NCBI GenBank assembly: GCA_950072105.1
Contig: CATMOE010000067.1
Span: forward strand, 1 to 17,418
DNA from: an uncultured Dehalococcoidia bacterium
Lineage (GTDB): Bacteria > Chloroflexota > Dehalococcoidia > Lucifugimonadales > UBA3495
Length of the DNA: 17,418 nt
Reading direction: 5' to 3'
Below the pieces are notes generated by a model. The model did not search any database. It saw nothing but the letters and a program-made list of their open reading frames with translations, and had not been told where the DNA came from. Every line of letters starts with the position of its first letter. Position 1 is the first letter of the stretch. Shown piece by piece: positions 2,426 to 8,900 of this stretch. The position numbers and the translations under genes are program-made.

Positions 2426-4729
2426 TTAGCCGCTGAGCAGCTTGGCGATAAAACTCGGGCTGAGGGGTAGTTGGGTTATCTGAACGCCCAGGGGCGCCAG
2501 GGCGTTGCTCACGGCATTGGCCAGTGTCGCTCCGGTTGCCACGATTCCACCCTCGCCGGCTCCCTTCACTCCCAATGGGTTCAACGGTGAGGGCGCCTCT
2601 TCCAGAACGATGCTCTCTATCGGTGGTACGTCCGTGCTGGTGGGTAGCAGATAATCCATGAAACTGCCGGCCAGAAGTTGTCCGGAGTCGTCGTAGACTA
2701 GTTCCTCCAATAAGGTAGCGCCGATGCCCTGGGCAGCGCCCCCCACTGCTTGACCGTGGACCATCAACGGGTTGATGGCGCGGCCGATGTCTTCCACCAC
2801 CACGTAACGAATGATTTCTATCTTGCCGGTTTCCGGGTCCACGGCTACATGGGCGGCGTGACTCCCGTAACTGAAGGTAAGCTGGTCCGCTTCAAAGTAG
2901 GCTGTTATCTCCAGAGTCCCCGAGCCTTCTTCATTGAATCCAGGGTTCTCGGCTAGACCTGCGATCTCTCCCAAGCTCAGCAAAGCCGGTCCCTGCTCCG
3001 CGCCCTTACGAAATATCTCGCCTGTTTGTAAGACCAGGTTGGCCGGCTCGGTGTCAAGATACGTGCTGGCCAGGCTTAGGATCCGTTCCTTCATATTTTG
3101 ACAGGCCAGGTGTACGGCGTTGCCCCCCATCACCGTGCCCCGGCTGCCGTAAGTGCCGCCGCCGAAGGGTATATAGTCGGTGTTGCCGTGGTAGATGGTG
3201 ACGGCATCCATGGAGACGCCCAAGCTATCGGCGCAGATCTGGGCCATGGTGGTCTCATGGCCCTGGCCCATGGTGGTGATACCTAGATATACGTCAACGT
3301 CTCCCGTGCCGCTTATCACTATTCGGGCGCCTTCGTAGGGGCCCCGGCCGGTATTCTTGACGTATGTGGCGATGCCGATGCCGTGGTAGCGCCCGGCATC
3401 ATCCACCCATCGCTTGGGGTTTGTTTCCTCGTAGCCTATTTCGTCCAACGCCCGGGTCAATGCTTGGGGATAGTTGCCGCTGTCGAATATAGTGTCGCCG
3501 TCGGCCCGGGTGCGTCCCGCGTTGTAAGGCATCTGGGATGGCTGAATCAAGTTTTTGAAGCGCAATTCCGCCGGGTCTATCCCCAGGTCCGCCGCGGCCA
3601 TGTCCAGTAAGCGCTCCCGGATGAAACAGGACTCGTATCGACCCGGCGCTCGAAAAGTCCCCACGCCGGTCTTGTTGGTTATCACGCAATGTACGCCGCA
3701 CTCGTAGGCCGGCACGTTGTAAGGGCCCATCAGCAGGCCCGCGGTTGAAGCGGGCACCAGGCTGCCATGCGTCCGGATGTACCCGCCCATGTCGCCGTAG
3801 ACCTGGGCCCGGATCCCCAAGATGGTGCCGTCTTTTTTCATGGCGATCTCTATGTCGCAGAGAATATCCCTGGAATGGTTGGCGGCGATAAGGTGCTCCA
3901 GCCGGTCTTCCGTCCACTTTACCGGCCTGCCCAGCCGGATCGCCGCGAAGGGGACCAGGAAATCTTCCGGATAAAATTCCCCGCGTATGCCAAATCCCCC
4001 ACCCACGTCGCCTTCAACGAAGTGCATCTTCTCTTCGGGGAAGTCCAGAAGAGAAGACAATACCTCCCGGTTAAAGTGGGGTACTTTGGTGGCTCCCCAA
4101 ACCGTCAGTTCGCCCGCGTCGTAGGCCACTACCATTCCCCGGGTTTCCAGCGGGTTGCCCGTGTGGCGGTTGGTCTTGAAGCGTTCTTTGCGGGTATATT
4201 CGGCGTCTCTAAATGCCTGATCGATATCGCCGGTGGAGACAACGTAGTGCGCTGCCAGGTTGGTTCCCGGCGCCTCGTGGATGATAATCTCATCCCGTAG
4301 CGACTCTTCGATGTCAACGACGGCCGGCAAAGGCTCATAGGTCACGTCTATGACGTCTAGGGCGTCTTCGGCCAAATAGCGGCTATCCGCGATCACGATT
4401 GCCACCGGATCCCCCACATATCTGACCTTGTCTTGAGCTAGGGGATATTGTAGAAAGGGTTCCAGGCTTGGTAGTGGGTACAACCTGACCGGAATAGCCT
4501 TGGCCATGCCGGCGATGTCGTCGTAGGTAAAGACGGCCACGACTCCCGGCATGGCCAAGGCTGCCGTGGTGTCGATGGCTACGATCCGAGCGTGGGCATG
4601 GGGACTGCGCACGAATGTGGCATGGAGCATGCCGGGCAGCTTCACGTCGTCGGCGAAGGTTGCCCGTCCGGTTAGGAATCGCTCGTCCTCTTTTCTAGTG
4701 ATTGAGGCGCCGATATATTGTTGGACCAT
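2426..4729 (-). CDS. Xanthine oxidase family molybdopterin-binding large subunit (CoxL/CutL-like, not a bona fide CO dehydrogenase)
   Basis: RKEDERFLTG, VRSPHAHARI, VGGGFG, GQGHETTMAQI, GTYGSRG and catalytic KGAGEGG. The active-site loop is TFRAPGR. SD-like AAGGGGA lies upstream. Confidence 0.92.
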   Translation of the reverse strand: MVQQYIGASITRKEDERFLTGRATFADDVKLPGMLHATFVRSPHAHARIVAIDTTAALAMPGVVAVFTYDDIAGMAKAIPVRLYPLPSLEPFLQYPLAQDKVRYVGDPVAIVIADSRYLAEDALDVIDVTYEPLPAVVDIEESLRDEIIIHEAPGTNLAAHYVVSTGDIDQAFRDAEYTRKERFKTNRHTGNPLETRGMVVAYDAGELTVWGATKVPHFNREVLSSLLDFPEEKMHFVEGDVGGGFGIRGEFYPEDFLVPFAAIRLGRPVKWTEDRLEHLIAANHSRDILCDIEIAMKKDGTILGIRAQVYGDMGGYIRTHGSLVPASTAGLLMGPYNVPAYECGVHCVITNKTGVGTFRAPGRYESCFIRERLLDMAAADLGIDPAELRFKNLIQPSQMPYNAGRTRADGDTIFDSGNYPQALTRALDEIGYEETNPKRWVDDAGRYHGIGIATYVKNTGRGPYEGARIVISGTGDVDVYLGITTMGQGHETTMAQICADSLGVSMDAVTIYHGNTDYIPFGGGTYGSRGTVMGGNAVHLACQNMKERILSLASTYLDTEPANLVLQTGEIFRKGAEQGPALLSLGEIAGLAENPGFNEEGSGTLEITAYFEADQLTFSYGSHAAHVAVDPETGKIEIIRYVVVEDIGRAINPLMVHGQAVGGAAQGIGATLLEELVYDDSGQLLAGSFMDYLLPTSTDVPPIESIVLEEAPSPLNPLGVKGAGEGGIVATGATLANAVSNALAPLGVQITQLPLSPSFIAKLLSG

Positions 4730-4792
4730 AGCATTCCCCTTTGAGGGACTCGGTTTAGGGACGGGGGGACTGGCGGAGGGTCCGGGACCGCT

Positions 4793-5266
4793 TTATCCAG
4801 CCTCTTGGCTGACGTCCAAAATGGCCTGAACGATCGGGGCATATCCGGTGCAGCGGCAGATGTTTCCGGAGATTCCCTCTCGAACCTGCTCTTCGGTGGG
4901 ATTGGATGTATCTCTGAGAAATTCGTAGGCGGTCATCAACAGACCTGGGGTGCAAAACCCGCATTGAAGAGCGTGATTCCGCTGGAATGCCCGCTGAAGC
5001 GGATGAAGTTCCGGTCCGTCGGCCAGTCCCTCCACGGTCATCAGGCTGGCCCCATCGGCCTGGACCGCCAGCATCAAACATGACCGCATGGCGCTACCGT
5101 CCACCAAAATAGTACAGGCGCCGCAGACGCCGTGCTCACAGCCGACGTGGGTACCGGTAAGGTCTAGTTCGCCTCGAAGGAAGTCGACCAAGGTCATCCG
5201 CACCGGCACCAGGCTTTCGTATGCCTTGCCGTTGACTGTCAACCTTATGTTGCGTTCAGTGGTCAT
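4793..5266 (-). CDS. [2Fe-2S] small subunit (CoxS/CutS-like)
   Basis: GCEHGVCGAC...C and QCGFC...CRC iron-sulfur ligand sets. The start overlaps the stop of the medium subunit (ATGA). Confidence 0.95.
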   Translation of the reverse strand: MTTERNIRLTVNGKAYESLVPVRMTLVDFLRGELDLTGTHVGCEHGVCGACTILVDGSAMRSCLMLAVQADGASLMTVEGLADGPELHPLQRAFQRNHALQCGFCTPGLLMTAYEFLRDTSNPTEEQVREGISGNICRCTGYAPIVQAILDVSQEAG

Positions 5267-6162
5267 GCGGCGTCTTCTCCTTCATTAAAGGGCAACGCTT
5301 GGGGGAGCAAGGCCTGCTCCAGTGCCCGGCGGACCATGACGCCGGCCACGTCCTGGCGGTATTTGGCGGACGCGTGGATGTCAGAGATGGGATCCAGGGC
5401 ATCTGAAACCAACCGGGCGGCCTCCGACCGGTCATCCGTGCTCACTGAAGAGCCGGATAGATACACTTCCGCCGCGTCCATCCTCATCGGTGTGCCTCCG
5501 GCGCCGAATGTCGTTATCCGAGCCTCAAGGCAGATGCCTTTATCGTCTAGATGTAACATGGTGGCCGCCCCCACCAAAGCGAAGTCTCCGTCGCGGCGGC
5601 AGACTTCTTGGAACCCCCATCGCCAGTTCCCTACGGTTTGAGGTATTCGGATCTGAGTCAGCAATTCCACCGGCTCAAGGGCGGTGGTCAGGTGGTTCAA
5701 GAAGAAGTCTTCCGCCTTGACGGTACGTTCCCCGCCACTGTTTGCAAGTTCAAACTCGGTTTCTAAGGTAAGGCAAACCGCCGGAATCTCCGCGGCGGGG
5801 TCGCTGTGGGCCAGGCTGCCGCCCACGGTGCCCCGATTGCGTATCTGGAAATGTCCGATGTAAGGAATGGCCCAAGACAGCAAAGGAGCTGTCTCCAGAA
5901 CCAGTGCCGACCTCTCCAATTCCCGTTGCCTGGTCATTGCGCCGATGGCTAATCCGGCATCCCGCCTGGGCGAGATATGTGACAGGCCGGCTATTCGGTT
6001 GATGTCAATCACAACTTTCGGGCGAACAAGCCTCATGTTCATCATGGGCATCAAGCTCTGTCCACCGGCCAATATTTTGGCGTCGTCGCCGTATTGGCCG
6101 AGCAACTCTAGAGCTTCGTCTCGAGAGCTTGGAGAGTAGTAGTCGAATCTGGCTGGTTTCAT
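5263..6162 (-). CDS. FAD-binding medium subunit (CoxM/CutM-like)
   Basis: MKPARFDY, LAGGQSLMP, IRNRGTVGGSLAHSDPAAE, RRDGDFA and DIHASAKYR motifs. Confidence 0.95.
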   Translation of the reverse strand: MKPARFDYYSPSSRDEALELLGQYGDDAKILAGGQSLMPMMNMRLVRPKVVIDINRIAGLSHISPRRDAGLAIGAMTRQRELERSALVLETAPLLSWAIPYIGHFQIRNRGTVGGSLAHSDPAAEIPAVCLTLETEFELANSGGERTVKAEDFFLNHLTTALEPVELLTQIRIPQTVGNWRWGFQEVCRRDGDFALVGAATMLHLDDKGICLEARITTFGAGGTPMRMDAAEVYLSGSSVSTDDRSEAARLVSDALDPISDIHASAKYRQDVAGVMVRRALEQALLPQALPFNEGEDAA

Positions 6163-6633
6163 GTCTGACGGGCTCGTTGAATCATGGTTGTAGGTACCGG
6201 TTTGGTCTCATTAGCTCCCGCTACGCGAACCGCGAAAGGTTGGGTCAGGCAGATGAGCAAGCGGGAGAGGCTAGTATAGGATACGACCGTAAACACGGGC
6301 GGAAATCCACCGCGGCTAGACTTGGAAATCGAATTCTGCGTACACTTAAGCCCACGGAGTATAACCCGGCGGATGTTCCGCCGCAAGAAATTTATGTTAG
6401 CAGCCAAGTGTCAATGGTAGGTAGCGGCGCCGCTGGATGGAACTGGCGCCTAAGCCGGGCTCGTTTTCGGATATCTTTAGCGAATCGATCTGTTCCGATT
6501 GCGACGATCGCCCGGACCGCCTCCGCAAAGGAAGCGTATTACATAACGTAACGGTATTAGGCTCAGACGGTTGGCATAGTAGCACTCTTCGTCGTAGAAG
6601 AACCCAAACTTGCTCGAAGTTTCAAGACTTTTG

Positions 6634-6652
6634 GTCTAGACAAAGTGTAGAC
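6634..6652. promoter_or_regulatory. Candidate tandem GntR/HutC-type operator upstream of the archaellin genes
   Basis: Perfect palindrome GTCTAGAC (6634-6641) and GTGTAGAC (6645-6652), both fitting GTnTAnAC, 11 bp apart and 43 nt before the first archaellin ATG. Confidence 0.35.
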
Positions 6653-6695
6653 TGCCAAATCAGATATATAGCTGGGAGAGGTTTAAACACCAACC

Positions 6696-7310
6696 ATGAG
6701 GAAACTCAATATGAATTCGCAACAAGGGTTGCCGGGGTTGTATCGGGACCAAAGGGGAATCACGGGTCTTGAAACGGCCATCGTACTCATCGCTTTCGTG
6801 GTGGTTGCTTCTGTGTTTGCTTTCGCCGTTCTAAGCACCGGTTTGCTCAGCTCAGAAAAGAGTAAAGAGACGGTGTTGGGCGGGCTGGAAGAAACCTCCT
6901 CTACATTGAGTGTACGCGGCGACGTTATCGGCGACGCCAACTCGGGCAAAACCGCCTTAGATACCGTCAAGTTCACCCTGCCCAGTGCCGCACAAGCCGC
7001 GGACGCGGTGGACCTTTCCAGCACCGGCGTGGTAATCACATACCTGGATCAGGACCAGGCCCTAAACTGTACCAACGCGTCGGGGTCGGGAAATTCCTAC
7101 TGTTTCTGGACCACGTCCTGGATCATCGGTTCCGGTGATCTGGTGGACCCCGGTGAGCAGGTAGACGTAACCGTTGACCTTTAAAACATGACACCGGTCC
7201 TAGGACTTAAGAAGGAATTCACCATACAAGTTAAGCCCAACAAGGGAGCGGTGATCATCGTCAACCGGATGACACCTCCTGAATTCAAGGCGATCCAGGC
7301 TCTTAACTGA
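6696..7310 (+). pseudogene. arlB: Archaellin (archaeal flagellin, ArlB/FlaB family) copy 1, interrupted by an in-frame TAA at 7182-7184
   Basis: Class III signal peptide RDQRG|ITGLETAIVLIAFVVVASVFAFAVLSTG and late motif GDLVDPGE. After the TAA the same frame continues NMTPVLGLKKEFTIQVKPNKGAVIIVNRMTPPEFKAIQALN to TGA at 7308-7310, colinear with the C-terminus of copy 2. Confidence 0.88.
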
Positions 7311-7385
7311 CCATGGCGAGTCGTTGATCGATCAAAACTCCAGGCCAACGTAGTGAGATTATTAGGAAAGGTTGCAAGAGGTACC

Positions 7386-8012
7386 ATGAGGAATCTAATA
7401 AAAAGACCGTTAGGTAGAGCGGCTGAGTTGCAAGCCAACCAGAAAGGAATCACCGGTCTTGAAACGGCCATAGAACTCATCGCTTTCGTCGTGGTTGCCT
7501 CGGTTTTCGCTTTCGCCGTCCTCAGTACGGGACTGCTCAGCTCGGAAAAGAGCAAAGAAACCGTGTTGGGAGGCTTGGAGGAAACTTCGTCGACCATTAG
7601 CGTAAGGGGCTCGGTCATTGGCGACTCCAACAGCGCCAAGACCTTCATTGATACCGTTAAGTTCACACTGAGCAGCGCCGCCCAAGCGTCGGACGCGGTG
7701 GACCTCTCCACCACCGGTGTGGTGGTAACCTACCTGGATGACAACCAGGCAATCAACTGCGAGAACCCCCAGAGTTTCGACGGGGATGCTGACACCGCCG
7801 AGTGTTCATGGGCCACCAGCTGGGTTATCGGCTCCGGTGACTTGGTGGACCCGGGTGAGCAGGTAGACATGACCATTACGCTGACTAACCTAAGCCCCTT
7901 GCTCCCCAAGAGCAGAGAATTCACCATTCAAGTCAAACCCAACAAGGGAGCGGTAGTCATCGTGAACCGGACTACCCCGCCCGAGTTGAAAGCCATCATG
8001 GAGCTGAATTAG
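7386..8012 (+). CDS. arlB: Archaellin (archaeal flagellin, ArlB/FlaB family) copy 2, 208 aa
   Basis: NQKG|ITGLETAIELIAFVVVASVFAFAVLSTG class III signal and hydrophobic helix, then GDLVDPGE and EFTIQVKPNKGA. ATG 7386 follows SD-like GAGGT, so it is preferred to the GTG at 7353. Confidence 0.9.
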   Translation: MRNLIKRPLGRAAELQANQKGITGLETAIELIAFVVVASVFAFAVLSTGLLSSEKSKETVLGGLEETSSTISVRGSVIGDSNSAKTFIDTVKFTLSSAAQASDAVDLSTTGVVVTYLDDNQAINCENPQSFDGDADTAECSWATSWVIGSGDLVDPGEQVDMTITLTNLSPLLPKSREFTIQVKPNKGAVVIVNRTTPPELKAIMELN

Positions 8013-8042
8013 ACAGATTCCTCAGGAAACTGTTTCCGAACC

Positions 8043-8085
8043 AGGCGCCGGCCCGTTTTGGATGGGCCGGCGCCTCTTTTGTTTG
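8043..8085 (+). terminator. Rho-independent terminator after the archaellin pair
   Basis: 12-bp perfect stem AGGCGCCGGCCC (8043-8054) / GGGCCGGCGCCT (8064-8075), followed by CTTTTGTTTG. Confidence 0.85.
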
Positions 8086-8107
8086 CTTGCCGTAATTGGG
8101 AGAACAC

Positions 8108-8113
8108 TATACT
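8108..8113 (+). promoter_or_regulatory. Candidate -10 box for the SDR gene
   Basis: TATACT between the terminator and the SD (AGGAG, 8140-8144). TTG-initiated hexamers lie at 15 and 19 nt spacing, neither optimal. Confidence 0.35.
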
Positions 8114-8150
8114 CTGAGCTTTCTATCAGCCCATATCCTAGGAGATAGCG

Positions 8151-8900
8151 ATGAGTATGGAAGGATTGGTGGCGGTGGTCACCGGCAGCAGCCGGGGCAT
8201 CGGCAAGGGTATAGCAAATATATTTGGTGAGCAAGGCGCCCGAGTGGCGGTGGTGGCCCGCAGTGAAGAGGAAGGGGGCAGGCTCCCCGGCAACATCCAT
8301 CTCACCGTAAAGGAAATACAAGACGCCGGAGGCCAGGCAATGGCTTTCCGTTGTGACGTGACCGACGAGGAGCAGGTCGAGGCGCTGGCGGCCGCGGTGG
8401 TGGAAGCCTACGGGCGTATCGACGTACTGGTGAACAACGCTGGGGTTCAGGTAAATGTCGGCCTTTTGGATCTTCAAACACGCCATTGGGACCTGACCAT
8501 GCGGGTGAACCTGAGGGGTCCTTTCCTATGCTGCAAGTATCTGGCCCCCATCATGGTTCAGCAGAGCAGCGGAAGTATCATCAACATCACATCCGGGGCG
8601 GCTGAGAGGGTCCGGCCCAACGGCATAAGCTACTCCGTAACCAAGGCAGGCCTGAACATGATGACCCTTGGTTTGGCCCAAGAATTGGAGGAGCACGACA
8701 TAGCGGTCAACGCCCTGAATCCAGGCGGGATCAAGACCGAGGGCGCCGTGCTGGTGCGTCCAGCCGATTTCGATTGGACCGGGTGGGAATCGCCGGAAGT
8801 TGTTGGAGAGGCATCGGCCTGGTTGGCCATCCAGAACGCCAAGACTTTCACCGGACGTGTGGTGGACCGGGCTGAATTCGGCAAGACCTGGGGCGTCTAA
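8151..8900 (+). CDS. Short-chain dehydrogenase/reductase (classical SDR)
   Basis: TGSSRGIG nucleotide-binding motif, VNNAG, catalytic YSVTK and VNALNPG. SD AGGAG. Confidence 0.93.
   Translation: MSMEGLVAVVTGSSRGIGKGIANIFGEQGARVAVVARSEEEGGRLPGNIHLTVKEIQDAGGQAMAFRCDVTDEEQVEALAAAVVEAYGRIDVLVNNAGVQVNVGLLDLQTRHWDLTMRVNLRGPFLCCKYLAPIMVQQSSGSIINITSGAAERVRPNGISYSVTKAGLNMMTLGLAQELEEHDIAVNALNPGGIKTEGAVLVRPADFDWTGWESPEVVGEASAWLAIQNAKTFTGRVVDRAEFGKTWGV

Follow-up and report, generated by a model that had tools for sequence, protein, structure and literature searches.

The window analysed here is the entire 17,418-nucleotide contig C67 of G000, a SAR202-like Dehalococcoidia genome; G001 and G002 are the other two genomes of its genus. 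The family members G010, G023 and G008, which contain complete arl clusters, and a further member of the order, G024, were used for comparison. Two arlB genes are located in tandem on the forward strand. Copy A (6696–7184, +) is a truncated ORF of 162 residues counted from Met 6696, with an alternative start at Met 6711. Its class III site consists of Gly (6756–6758), Ile +1 (6759) and Glu +5 (6771–6773). A premature TAA (7182–7184, +) occupies mature codon 142, which encodes Ser in the intact paralogue on contig C3, and is followed by an untranslated remainder of 41 codons and the natural stop (7185–7310, +). Copy B (7386–8012, +) is an open ORF of 208 residues with Gly at 7446–7448, Ile +1 at 7449 and Glu +5 at 7461–7463. 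At +9, within the hydrophobic helix, copy B has GAA (Glu; 7473–7475), whereas the G001 orthologue has GTA (Val). The preliminary description of this DNA had reported two paralogues with the class III signal (R/K)G followed, after the cut, by ITGLETAI with Glu at +5, and this is what is present; a wildcard in the motif as then written hid the Glu at +9 of copy B. It had also placed a strong terminator behind the pair. The intrinsic terminator (8043–8085, +) comprises a hairpin (8043–8075; −33.8 kcal/mol, z −4.9) and a U-tract, and none of 200 shuffles was equally stable.

The intergenic region upstream of copy A (6163–6695) is common to the pair and a divergent Mo-hydroxylase operon. The left flank (2426–6162, −) contains the L, S and M genes of a xanthine/CO dehydrogenase family enzyme and the right flank (8151–8900, +) a short-chain dehydrogenase; both are syntenic in G001 and G010. 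In G001, a deletion corresponding to 6518–7205 of the window has taken most of copy A. Profile scans of 17 window ORFs identified, besides the archaellins, catabolic enzymes and two-component proteins; as described earlier, there is no arlF/G/H/I/J or other motor gene and no prepilin peptidase among them. The bacterial setting claimed for the pair holds for the catabolic enzymes and two-component proteins; the sigma-70 promoters were not confirmed, a scan of 6000–8300 giving no promoter-like site (shuffle mean 1.4). The Receiver-HisKA protein at 113–763 (−) stops inside the HisKA domain at 216 residues, compared with at least 407 residues in its G010 orthologue, and is perhaps another frameshifted gene.

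Copies A and B are genuine ArlB archaellins, as first proposed. The PF01917 profile, the check then suggested, matches them with 69.8 and 77.9 bits, respectively (cut-off 29.5), and the N-terminal domain TIGR02537 is above its cut-off in both. The basic residue, Gly −1 and Glu +5 of the class III signal are found in both copies, by sequence and by TIGR02537. NF006325 (PRK08541) gives only 37.7 and 40.5 bits against a cut-off of 210, with a similarly low score for the motor-linked ArlB of G023. The best sequence match of mature B is the Litorilinea aerophila archaellin 9I5H (phmmer E 1.5e-25). A model of B was obtained with AlphaFold2 on a 17-row alignment (pLDDT 73, pTM 0.57); its best fold match is again 9I5H (Foldseek E 9.3e-13), and the Foldseek list is headed by 16 archaellin/flagellin rows. 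As in Litorilinea ArlB (PDB 9I5H; PMC12488501, in the text available), the mature chain starts from the Ile after the Gly and consists of an N-terminal helix and a β-sandwich. The C-terminal β-sandwich is complete in the model of B; A ends before the final three strands. A Cys pair flanks a variable loop in this archaellin clade (window regions 7067–7108 and 7766–7816), the loop being short in A and long in B; the same pair is seen in the Aeropyrum pernix alignment and may form a disulfide.

The in-frame TAA removes 42 residues of copy A; archaellin codons continue behind it to 7310. The missing part covers the final three β-strands of the prediction (178–185, 191–196, and 204–207 of the B model). 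The hydrophobic N-helix of A is uncharged after +5, whereas that of B carries Glu +9. This position is Val or Ile in 37 of 38 collected ArlB starts, Glu being found in B. The best 19-residue hydropathy of B is 2.67 versus 3.07 in the G001 orthologue; the helix is still hydrophobic. The TAA of copy A is found on DNA contigs from two studies (X3 record 18, identical to the window; X5 record 27, two synonymous differences), and the Glu +9 codon of B is also on the X5 contig. Truncated A products of 157, 162 and 148 residues occur on 84, 6 and 29 + 5 contigs, respectively. The exact Glu-bearing B protein occurs on 46 contigs, with Glu in all 15 cluster members listed. In the cluster of copy A, none of the 30 rows listed extends past mature residue 141, though full-length forms might cluster separately. 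As they recur in independent metagenome contigs, both lesions are real. Copy A is a nonsense pseudogene; copy B is probably non-functional, given the Glu in its core helix and the null alleles that segregate in the population. Contigs X14 and X16 from RNA runs contain parts of A and B; we rejected them as evidence of expression since they also cover the flanks and intergenic DNA, and DNA carry-over is possible.

The GC content of the contig (57.7%) is that of the genome (median 57.6%). The stretch is present in 19 of 23 sequencing runs among those listed, which are mostly marine. The gene order of the window is repeated in G001 (89–93% DNA identity) and in G010, with a single arlB at the site in the latter. 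A Chloroflexota-labelled record (L115) is syntenic and 85–93% identical to contig C3 of G000, and one member of the protein cluster of copy A is labelled Dehalococcoidia. The Chloroflexota host is thus upheld. G000 has 118 luciferase-like monooxygenase matches; expansions of this family mark SAR202 group III (PMC10444878, in the part available), which suggests that G000 is group III-like. The X5 DNA contig spans 6373–8186 and differs from the window by only two synonymous changes. On these data the contig, whose taxonomy and continuity had been singled out for checking, was judged non-chimeric.

The preliminary description had recommended a genome-wide search for ArlH/I/J/F/G and PibD. No motor cluster or peptidase was detected in G000 (92% complete; 85% for G001 and 95% for G002): of the required archaellum parts, ArlI, ArlJ, clustered ArlH/F/G and the peptidase were not found. 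The ten PF01917 neighbourhoods of G000 scanned (136 of 171 ORFs) contain no motor genes, and ArlI, ArlJ, ArlG and ArlCDE queries from five motor loci of relatives gave no tblastn match in this genome. The ArlI query found no match in any of the three genus genomes; the same was true of ArlJ, in a search made without a positive control. No PF00437 match is above cut-off in G000, G001 or G002. PF00482 was rejected as a test for ArlJ because it misses the known ArlJ of this family; its null result concerns PilC/TadBC only, and no Tad/PilC platform was found with it. The only ArlH-like gene of G000 is fused to REC (C18; 128 bits versus a cut-off of 194), and the only ArlF-like genes are two lone ones (C10 and C63), with no motor cluster. 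The C18 gene (L056:3920–5146, −) encodes a 409-residue fusion of a receiver domain with an ArlH/KaiC-like ATPase (PRK06067, below cut-off) and adjoins a minor-pilin cluster, the first pilin of which has a TAG. Behind the ArlF-like gene on C10 of G000 (L023:8501–10050) is a 329-residue ORF made of approximately 50-residue repeats. In G001 (C20; L045:8043–9353), an archaellin carries at its C-terminus what looks by eye like a similar repeat; these are possible adhesin-type tip domains.

Prepilin peptidase searches gave no PF01478 match in G000 and G002 and no PF06847 match in five genomes, and a PilD query had no match in G000 at E 0.1. The A24 peptidase of G001 is a 147-residue protein among unassigned ORFs, located outside the pilus loci and without a match in G000. 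In G001 and G002, the PilB–PilC block near glmS is deleted at its syntenic site, which lies inside a single contig; in G000, there is a contig gap at this place. CheW was found in none of five genomes, the motor-bearing G010 and G008 included, and is hence uninformative. Twelve bacterial type IV pilin N-termini (PF07963) are dispersed in G000 even though no PilB, PilC or PilD was found; with these scattered pilins, the genome has another group of filament subunits that are orphaned. With neither a PilB/TadA ATPase nor a PilC/TadBC platform found, no PF00437 match above cut-off in the genus and no PilD, the earlier suggestion that the archaellins were repurposed for a type IV or Tad-like filament is not supported.

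G023 and G010 share the arrangement coxS–coxM–coxG–arlB–arlCDE–arlG–arlF–arlH–arlI–arlJ–orfZ–glmS. All three genus genomes have lost this motor cluster from the coxG–glmS interval, and in each the deletion is seen inside one contig. On contig C35 of G000, coxG and glmS are about 1 kb apart, with nothing but the 3′ part of orfZ between them. The site in G001 retains a frameshifted arlJ tail and orfZ, and that in G002 only 24 codons of orfZ. The alignment of G000 with G001 continues across the left junction, which suggests that the deletion is older than their split. The orfZ gene, located behind arlJ (L035:11202–11912, L054:7611–7991, and L066), is acidic and of low complexity and matches no Pfam or NCBIfam profile; G001 has it at full length, G000 in truncated form, and in G002 it is nearly gone. 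G010 has two complete archaellum motor clusters (C83 and C238; L038 and L034) and 19 PF01917 matches. The second cluster (C238) is headed by an archaellin of the clade of copy B (74–79% identity), and the sister genus g9 carries this motor type. No trace of its core was found in the three genus genomes; the search for an empty site gave only a one-sided hint, a 5′-truncated DUF58 gene on C72 of G000.

PF01917 has 14 matches on 10 contigs of G000. Two are the lone ArlF-like genes; the others represent 11 arlB genes, one of which was matched twice, scattered over 9 contigs. Four of the 10 scoreable copies are broken: copy A, C69 (stop at Gly −1), C31 (7-nt frameshift) and C33 (1-nt frameshift). 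The four copies C3-A, C3-B, C9 and C4 are intact in the assembly. In-frame stops are found in 2 of 10 arlB genes but in only 2 of the 118 luciferase-like genes taken as a control (Fisher p 0.03), a control that is blind to frameshifts. The lesions differ in G001 (A deleted, C28 with TAG) and G002 (two 1-nt frameshifts, although an indel of one base in a MAG may be an error). Alleles of copy B ending at mature residue 46 are present on 27 contigs and alleles of C3-A ending at mature residue 120 on 9 contigs (15 members listed per cluster); population alleles include changes at residues that are invariant elsewhere. The arlB copy on C69, cut by the contig end, is a pseudogene that stands alone: six of six spanning contigs show no motor beyond it. 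That on C26 runs off its contig, and the sole match to this end stopped at the same place. The two contig ends (C26, L021; C69, L022 and L104–L110) carry cassettes that resemble each other, each combining a small HTH gene with an 18-nt palindrome and arlB; a search of G001 and G002 found no orthologous sites. Behind the C69 copy, at a distance of about 1.5 kb, there is IS-like DNA. In G000, genes for a prohead protease and a capsid-like protein (L014:13743–15723) lie about 4 kb from the intact C3 pair; the syntenic record L115 lacks almost all of this pair.

Polarised dN/dS is 0.139 for four arlB genes versus 0.077 for 17 flank genes (p 0.004), in favour of relaxed selection, although raised values are also common in surface proteins. 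Pairwise values remain low. The window copies differ from their C3 paralogues by dN of 0.027 and 0.017 at dS of about 1.4 and 1.0, giving dN/dS of about 0.02 for the A and B types. Archaellin dN/dS is 0.07–0.11 between G000 and G002 (flank median 0.07) and 0.08–0.25 between G000 and G001 (B 0.08; dS about 0.2–0.4; flank median 0.09), with 0.47 for the 5′ part of C31 in the latter comparison. The selection-free share of the G000–G001 path would be about 5%, a rough estimate. As the deletion junction is common to G000 and G001 yet archaellin dN/dS is low, selection outlasted the deletion of the motor site. This persistence is the main result against a plain relic; it also fits a second motor that was lost late.

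That archaellins occur in Chloroflexota is established, as the preliminary description acknowledged: bacterial archaella have been reported (PMC12488501), as have scattered flaB copies in SAR202 (PMC10444878). In the available text of the former, archaella are counted in 243 of 3,780 Chloroflexota genomes, complete loci being counted, and a class III peptidase is said to process ArlB, which ArlI/ArlJ then assemble. The Litorilinea arlB belongs to a complete expressed locus (PDB 9I5H; PMC12488501), whereas the window pair are remote satellites, with A truncated, Glu at +9 in B and the motor not found. According to the part of PMC10444878 available, Chloroflexota FlaB is monophyletic, and the SAR202 strain 'Ca. 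Lucifugimonas marina' JH545 has six tandem and six scattered flaB copies and a full motor. The scattered copies resemble the 11 arlB genes on 9 contigs of G000; however, JH545 keeps flaGFHIJ and a FlaK candidate, whereas in G000 the motor site is deleted and no peptidase was matched. The complete arl clusters of G010, G023, G008 and G024 contain the same ArlB clades as the window pair. These genomes retain ArlH/I/J (NCBIfam FlaI 662 and 639 bits, above cut-off), unlike G000, where these were not found; G010, G023 and G008 also have a PF01478 peptidase, again without a match in G000. Of the 200 genomes of the family that were searched, ArlB was matched in 26 and ArlI in 16 (both, 13; ArlB only, 13; ArlI only, 3), mismatch counts that are inflated by incomplete assemblies; the 3 of 16 ArlI-positive genomes without an ArlB match indicate that assembly misses do happen. 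Four ArlB-only genomes (G004, G009, G018 and G020) have a PilB-type ATPase. Motor-less SAR202 archaellins are not treated in the available parts of 10.64898/2026.05.11.724246 or PMC13705601, and a literature search, with subscription journals outside its scope, found no paper on motor-less or decaying SAR202 archaellins. We class the window pair as probable relics belonging to a known family; neither bacterial archaellins nor scattered copies are new.

We consider it probable that the pair are satellite ArlB subunits orphaned by loss of the motor, now decaying, which build nothing today. They would have originated as stand-alone genes of a Chloroflexota archaellum, their prepro-archaellins formerly cut after the Gly by a prepilin peptidase and the hydrophobic N-helix used for polymerisation by an ArlI/ArlJ motor encoded elsewhere, to which the pair may once have given alternative subunits. 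The coxG–glmS cluster was then deleted in the genus; the second motor type and, PilD included, the machinery of the type IV pilus, neither of which was detected, were most likely lost as well. Selection would have relaxed recently, with the scattered copies decaying one at a time, and the locus most likely forms no filament at present. The relic of a lost archaellum, one of the options raised earlier, is thus best supported, by the deleted motor site, the lack of ArlI/ArlJ matches in all three genomes and the lesions in both copies. The satellite option holds for the origin of the pair, the same site having one arlB in the motor-bearing G010, but no motor that it could serve was found. For decay to be recent and independent in three lineages, however, the motor must have been lost late three times or have been part of a variable island.

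The persistence of selection could also mean that a working second motor of the G010 C238 type is present in the species or part of its population and missing from the MAGs, with the C3 pair, C9 and C4 feeding it and the window pair being dispensable paralogues lost by birth-and-death turnover. The position of the B clade at the head of this cluster in G010 is consistent with this, as are the incompleteness of the genomes and the unextended end of C26. Among the best 120 of 6518 ArlI matches, the nearest unplaced clusters (14, 2 and 8 members, 1–4 contigs each) are 83% identical to the ArlI of G010. However, they are far rarer than core proteins of this species such as CoxG (163, 183 and 64 contigs). 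As this motor, like PilD, is missing in three of three genomes, none lies beyond the C69 end and null alleles segregate in C3-A as well, we regard a hidden motor as unlikely.

We give similarly little credence to the proposal that some archaellins were kept after motor loss in a role that needs no motor, perhaps that of uncleaved β-sandwich surface proteins anchored in the membrane (adhesion, envelope or phage decoy), while redundant copies decay. Purifying selection between G000 and G001 after their common deletion, the dN/dS of about 0.02 of the A and B types, the 13 of 26 ArlB-positive family genomes without ArlI and the persistence of the 12 type IV pilin-like genes would all agree with such a role. 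The same signal would be given by a second motor lost later, though, and lesions affect many copies in all three genomes, segregating even in intact-looking ones; nor does the window locus show a new domain or partner gene. A fuller version, in which a widespread marine SAR202 lineage kept horizontally acquired archaellins under purifying selection as uncleaved, membrane-anchored surface proteins after loss of motor, platform and peptidase, the window pair being redundant copies in the course of being shed, seems to us just as doubtful. An assembly chimera, archaeal contamination or consensus errors in the lesions are highly improbable and already largely refuted: G000 has a contamination rating of 6.08% and no single independent contig crosses the whole of 5600–8900, but GC content, gene order in G001 and G010, the X5 contig, the Chloroflexota and Dehalococcoidia labels of relatives and the exact lesion-bearing proteins on 46 (B) and 84 (A) contigs all stand against it.

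The locus provides a case study of the renewed loss of a cross-domain archaellum, in which the syntenic site is empty and the decay is dated. Counts of arlB/flaB overstate motility in SAR202, as half of the ArlB-positive family genomes searched have no ArlI match. If the lingering purifying selection does reflect a motor-free role, this would be a new use of archaellins, an exaptation without a type IV filament machine.
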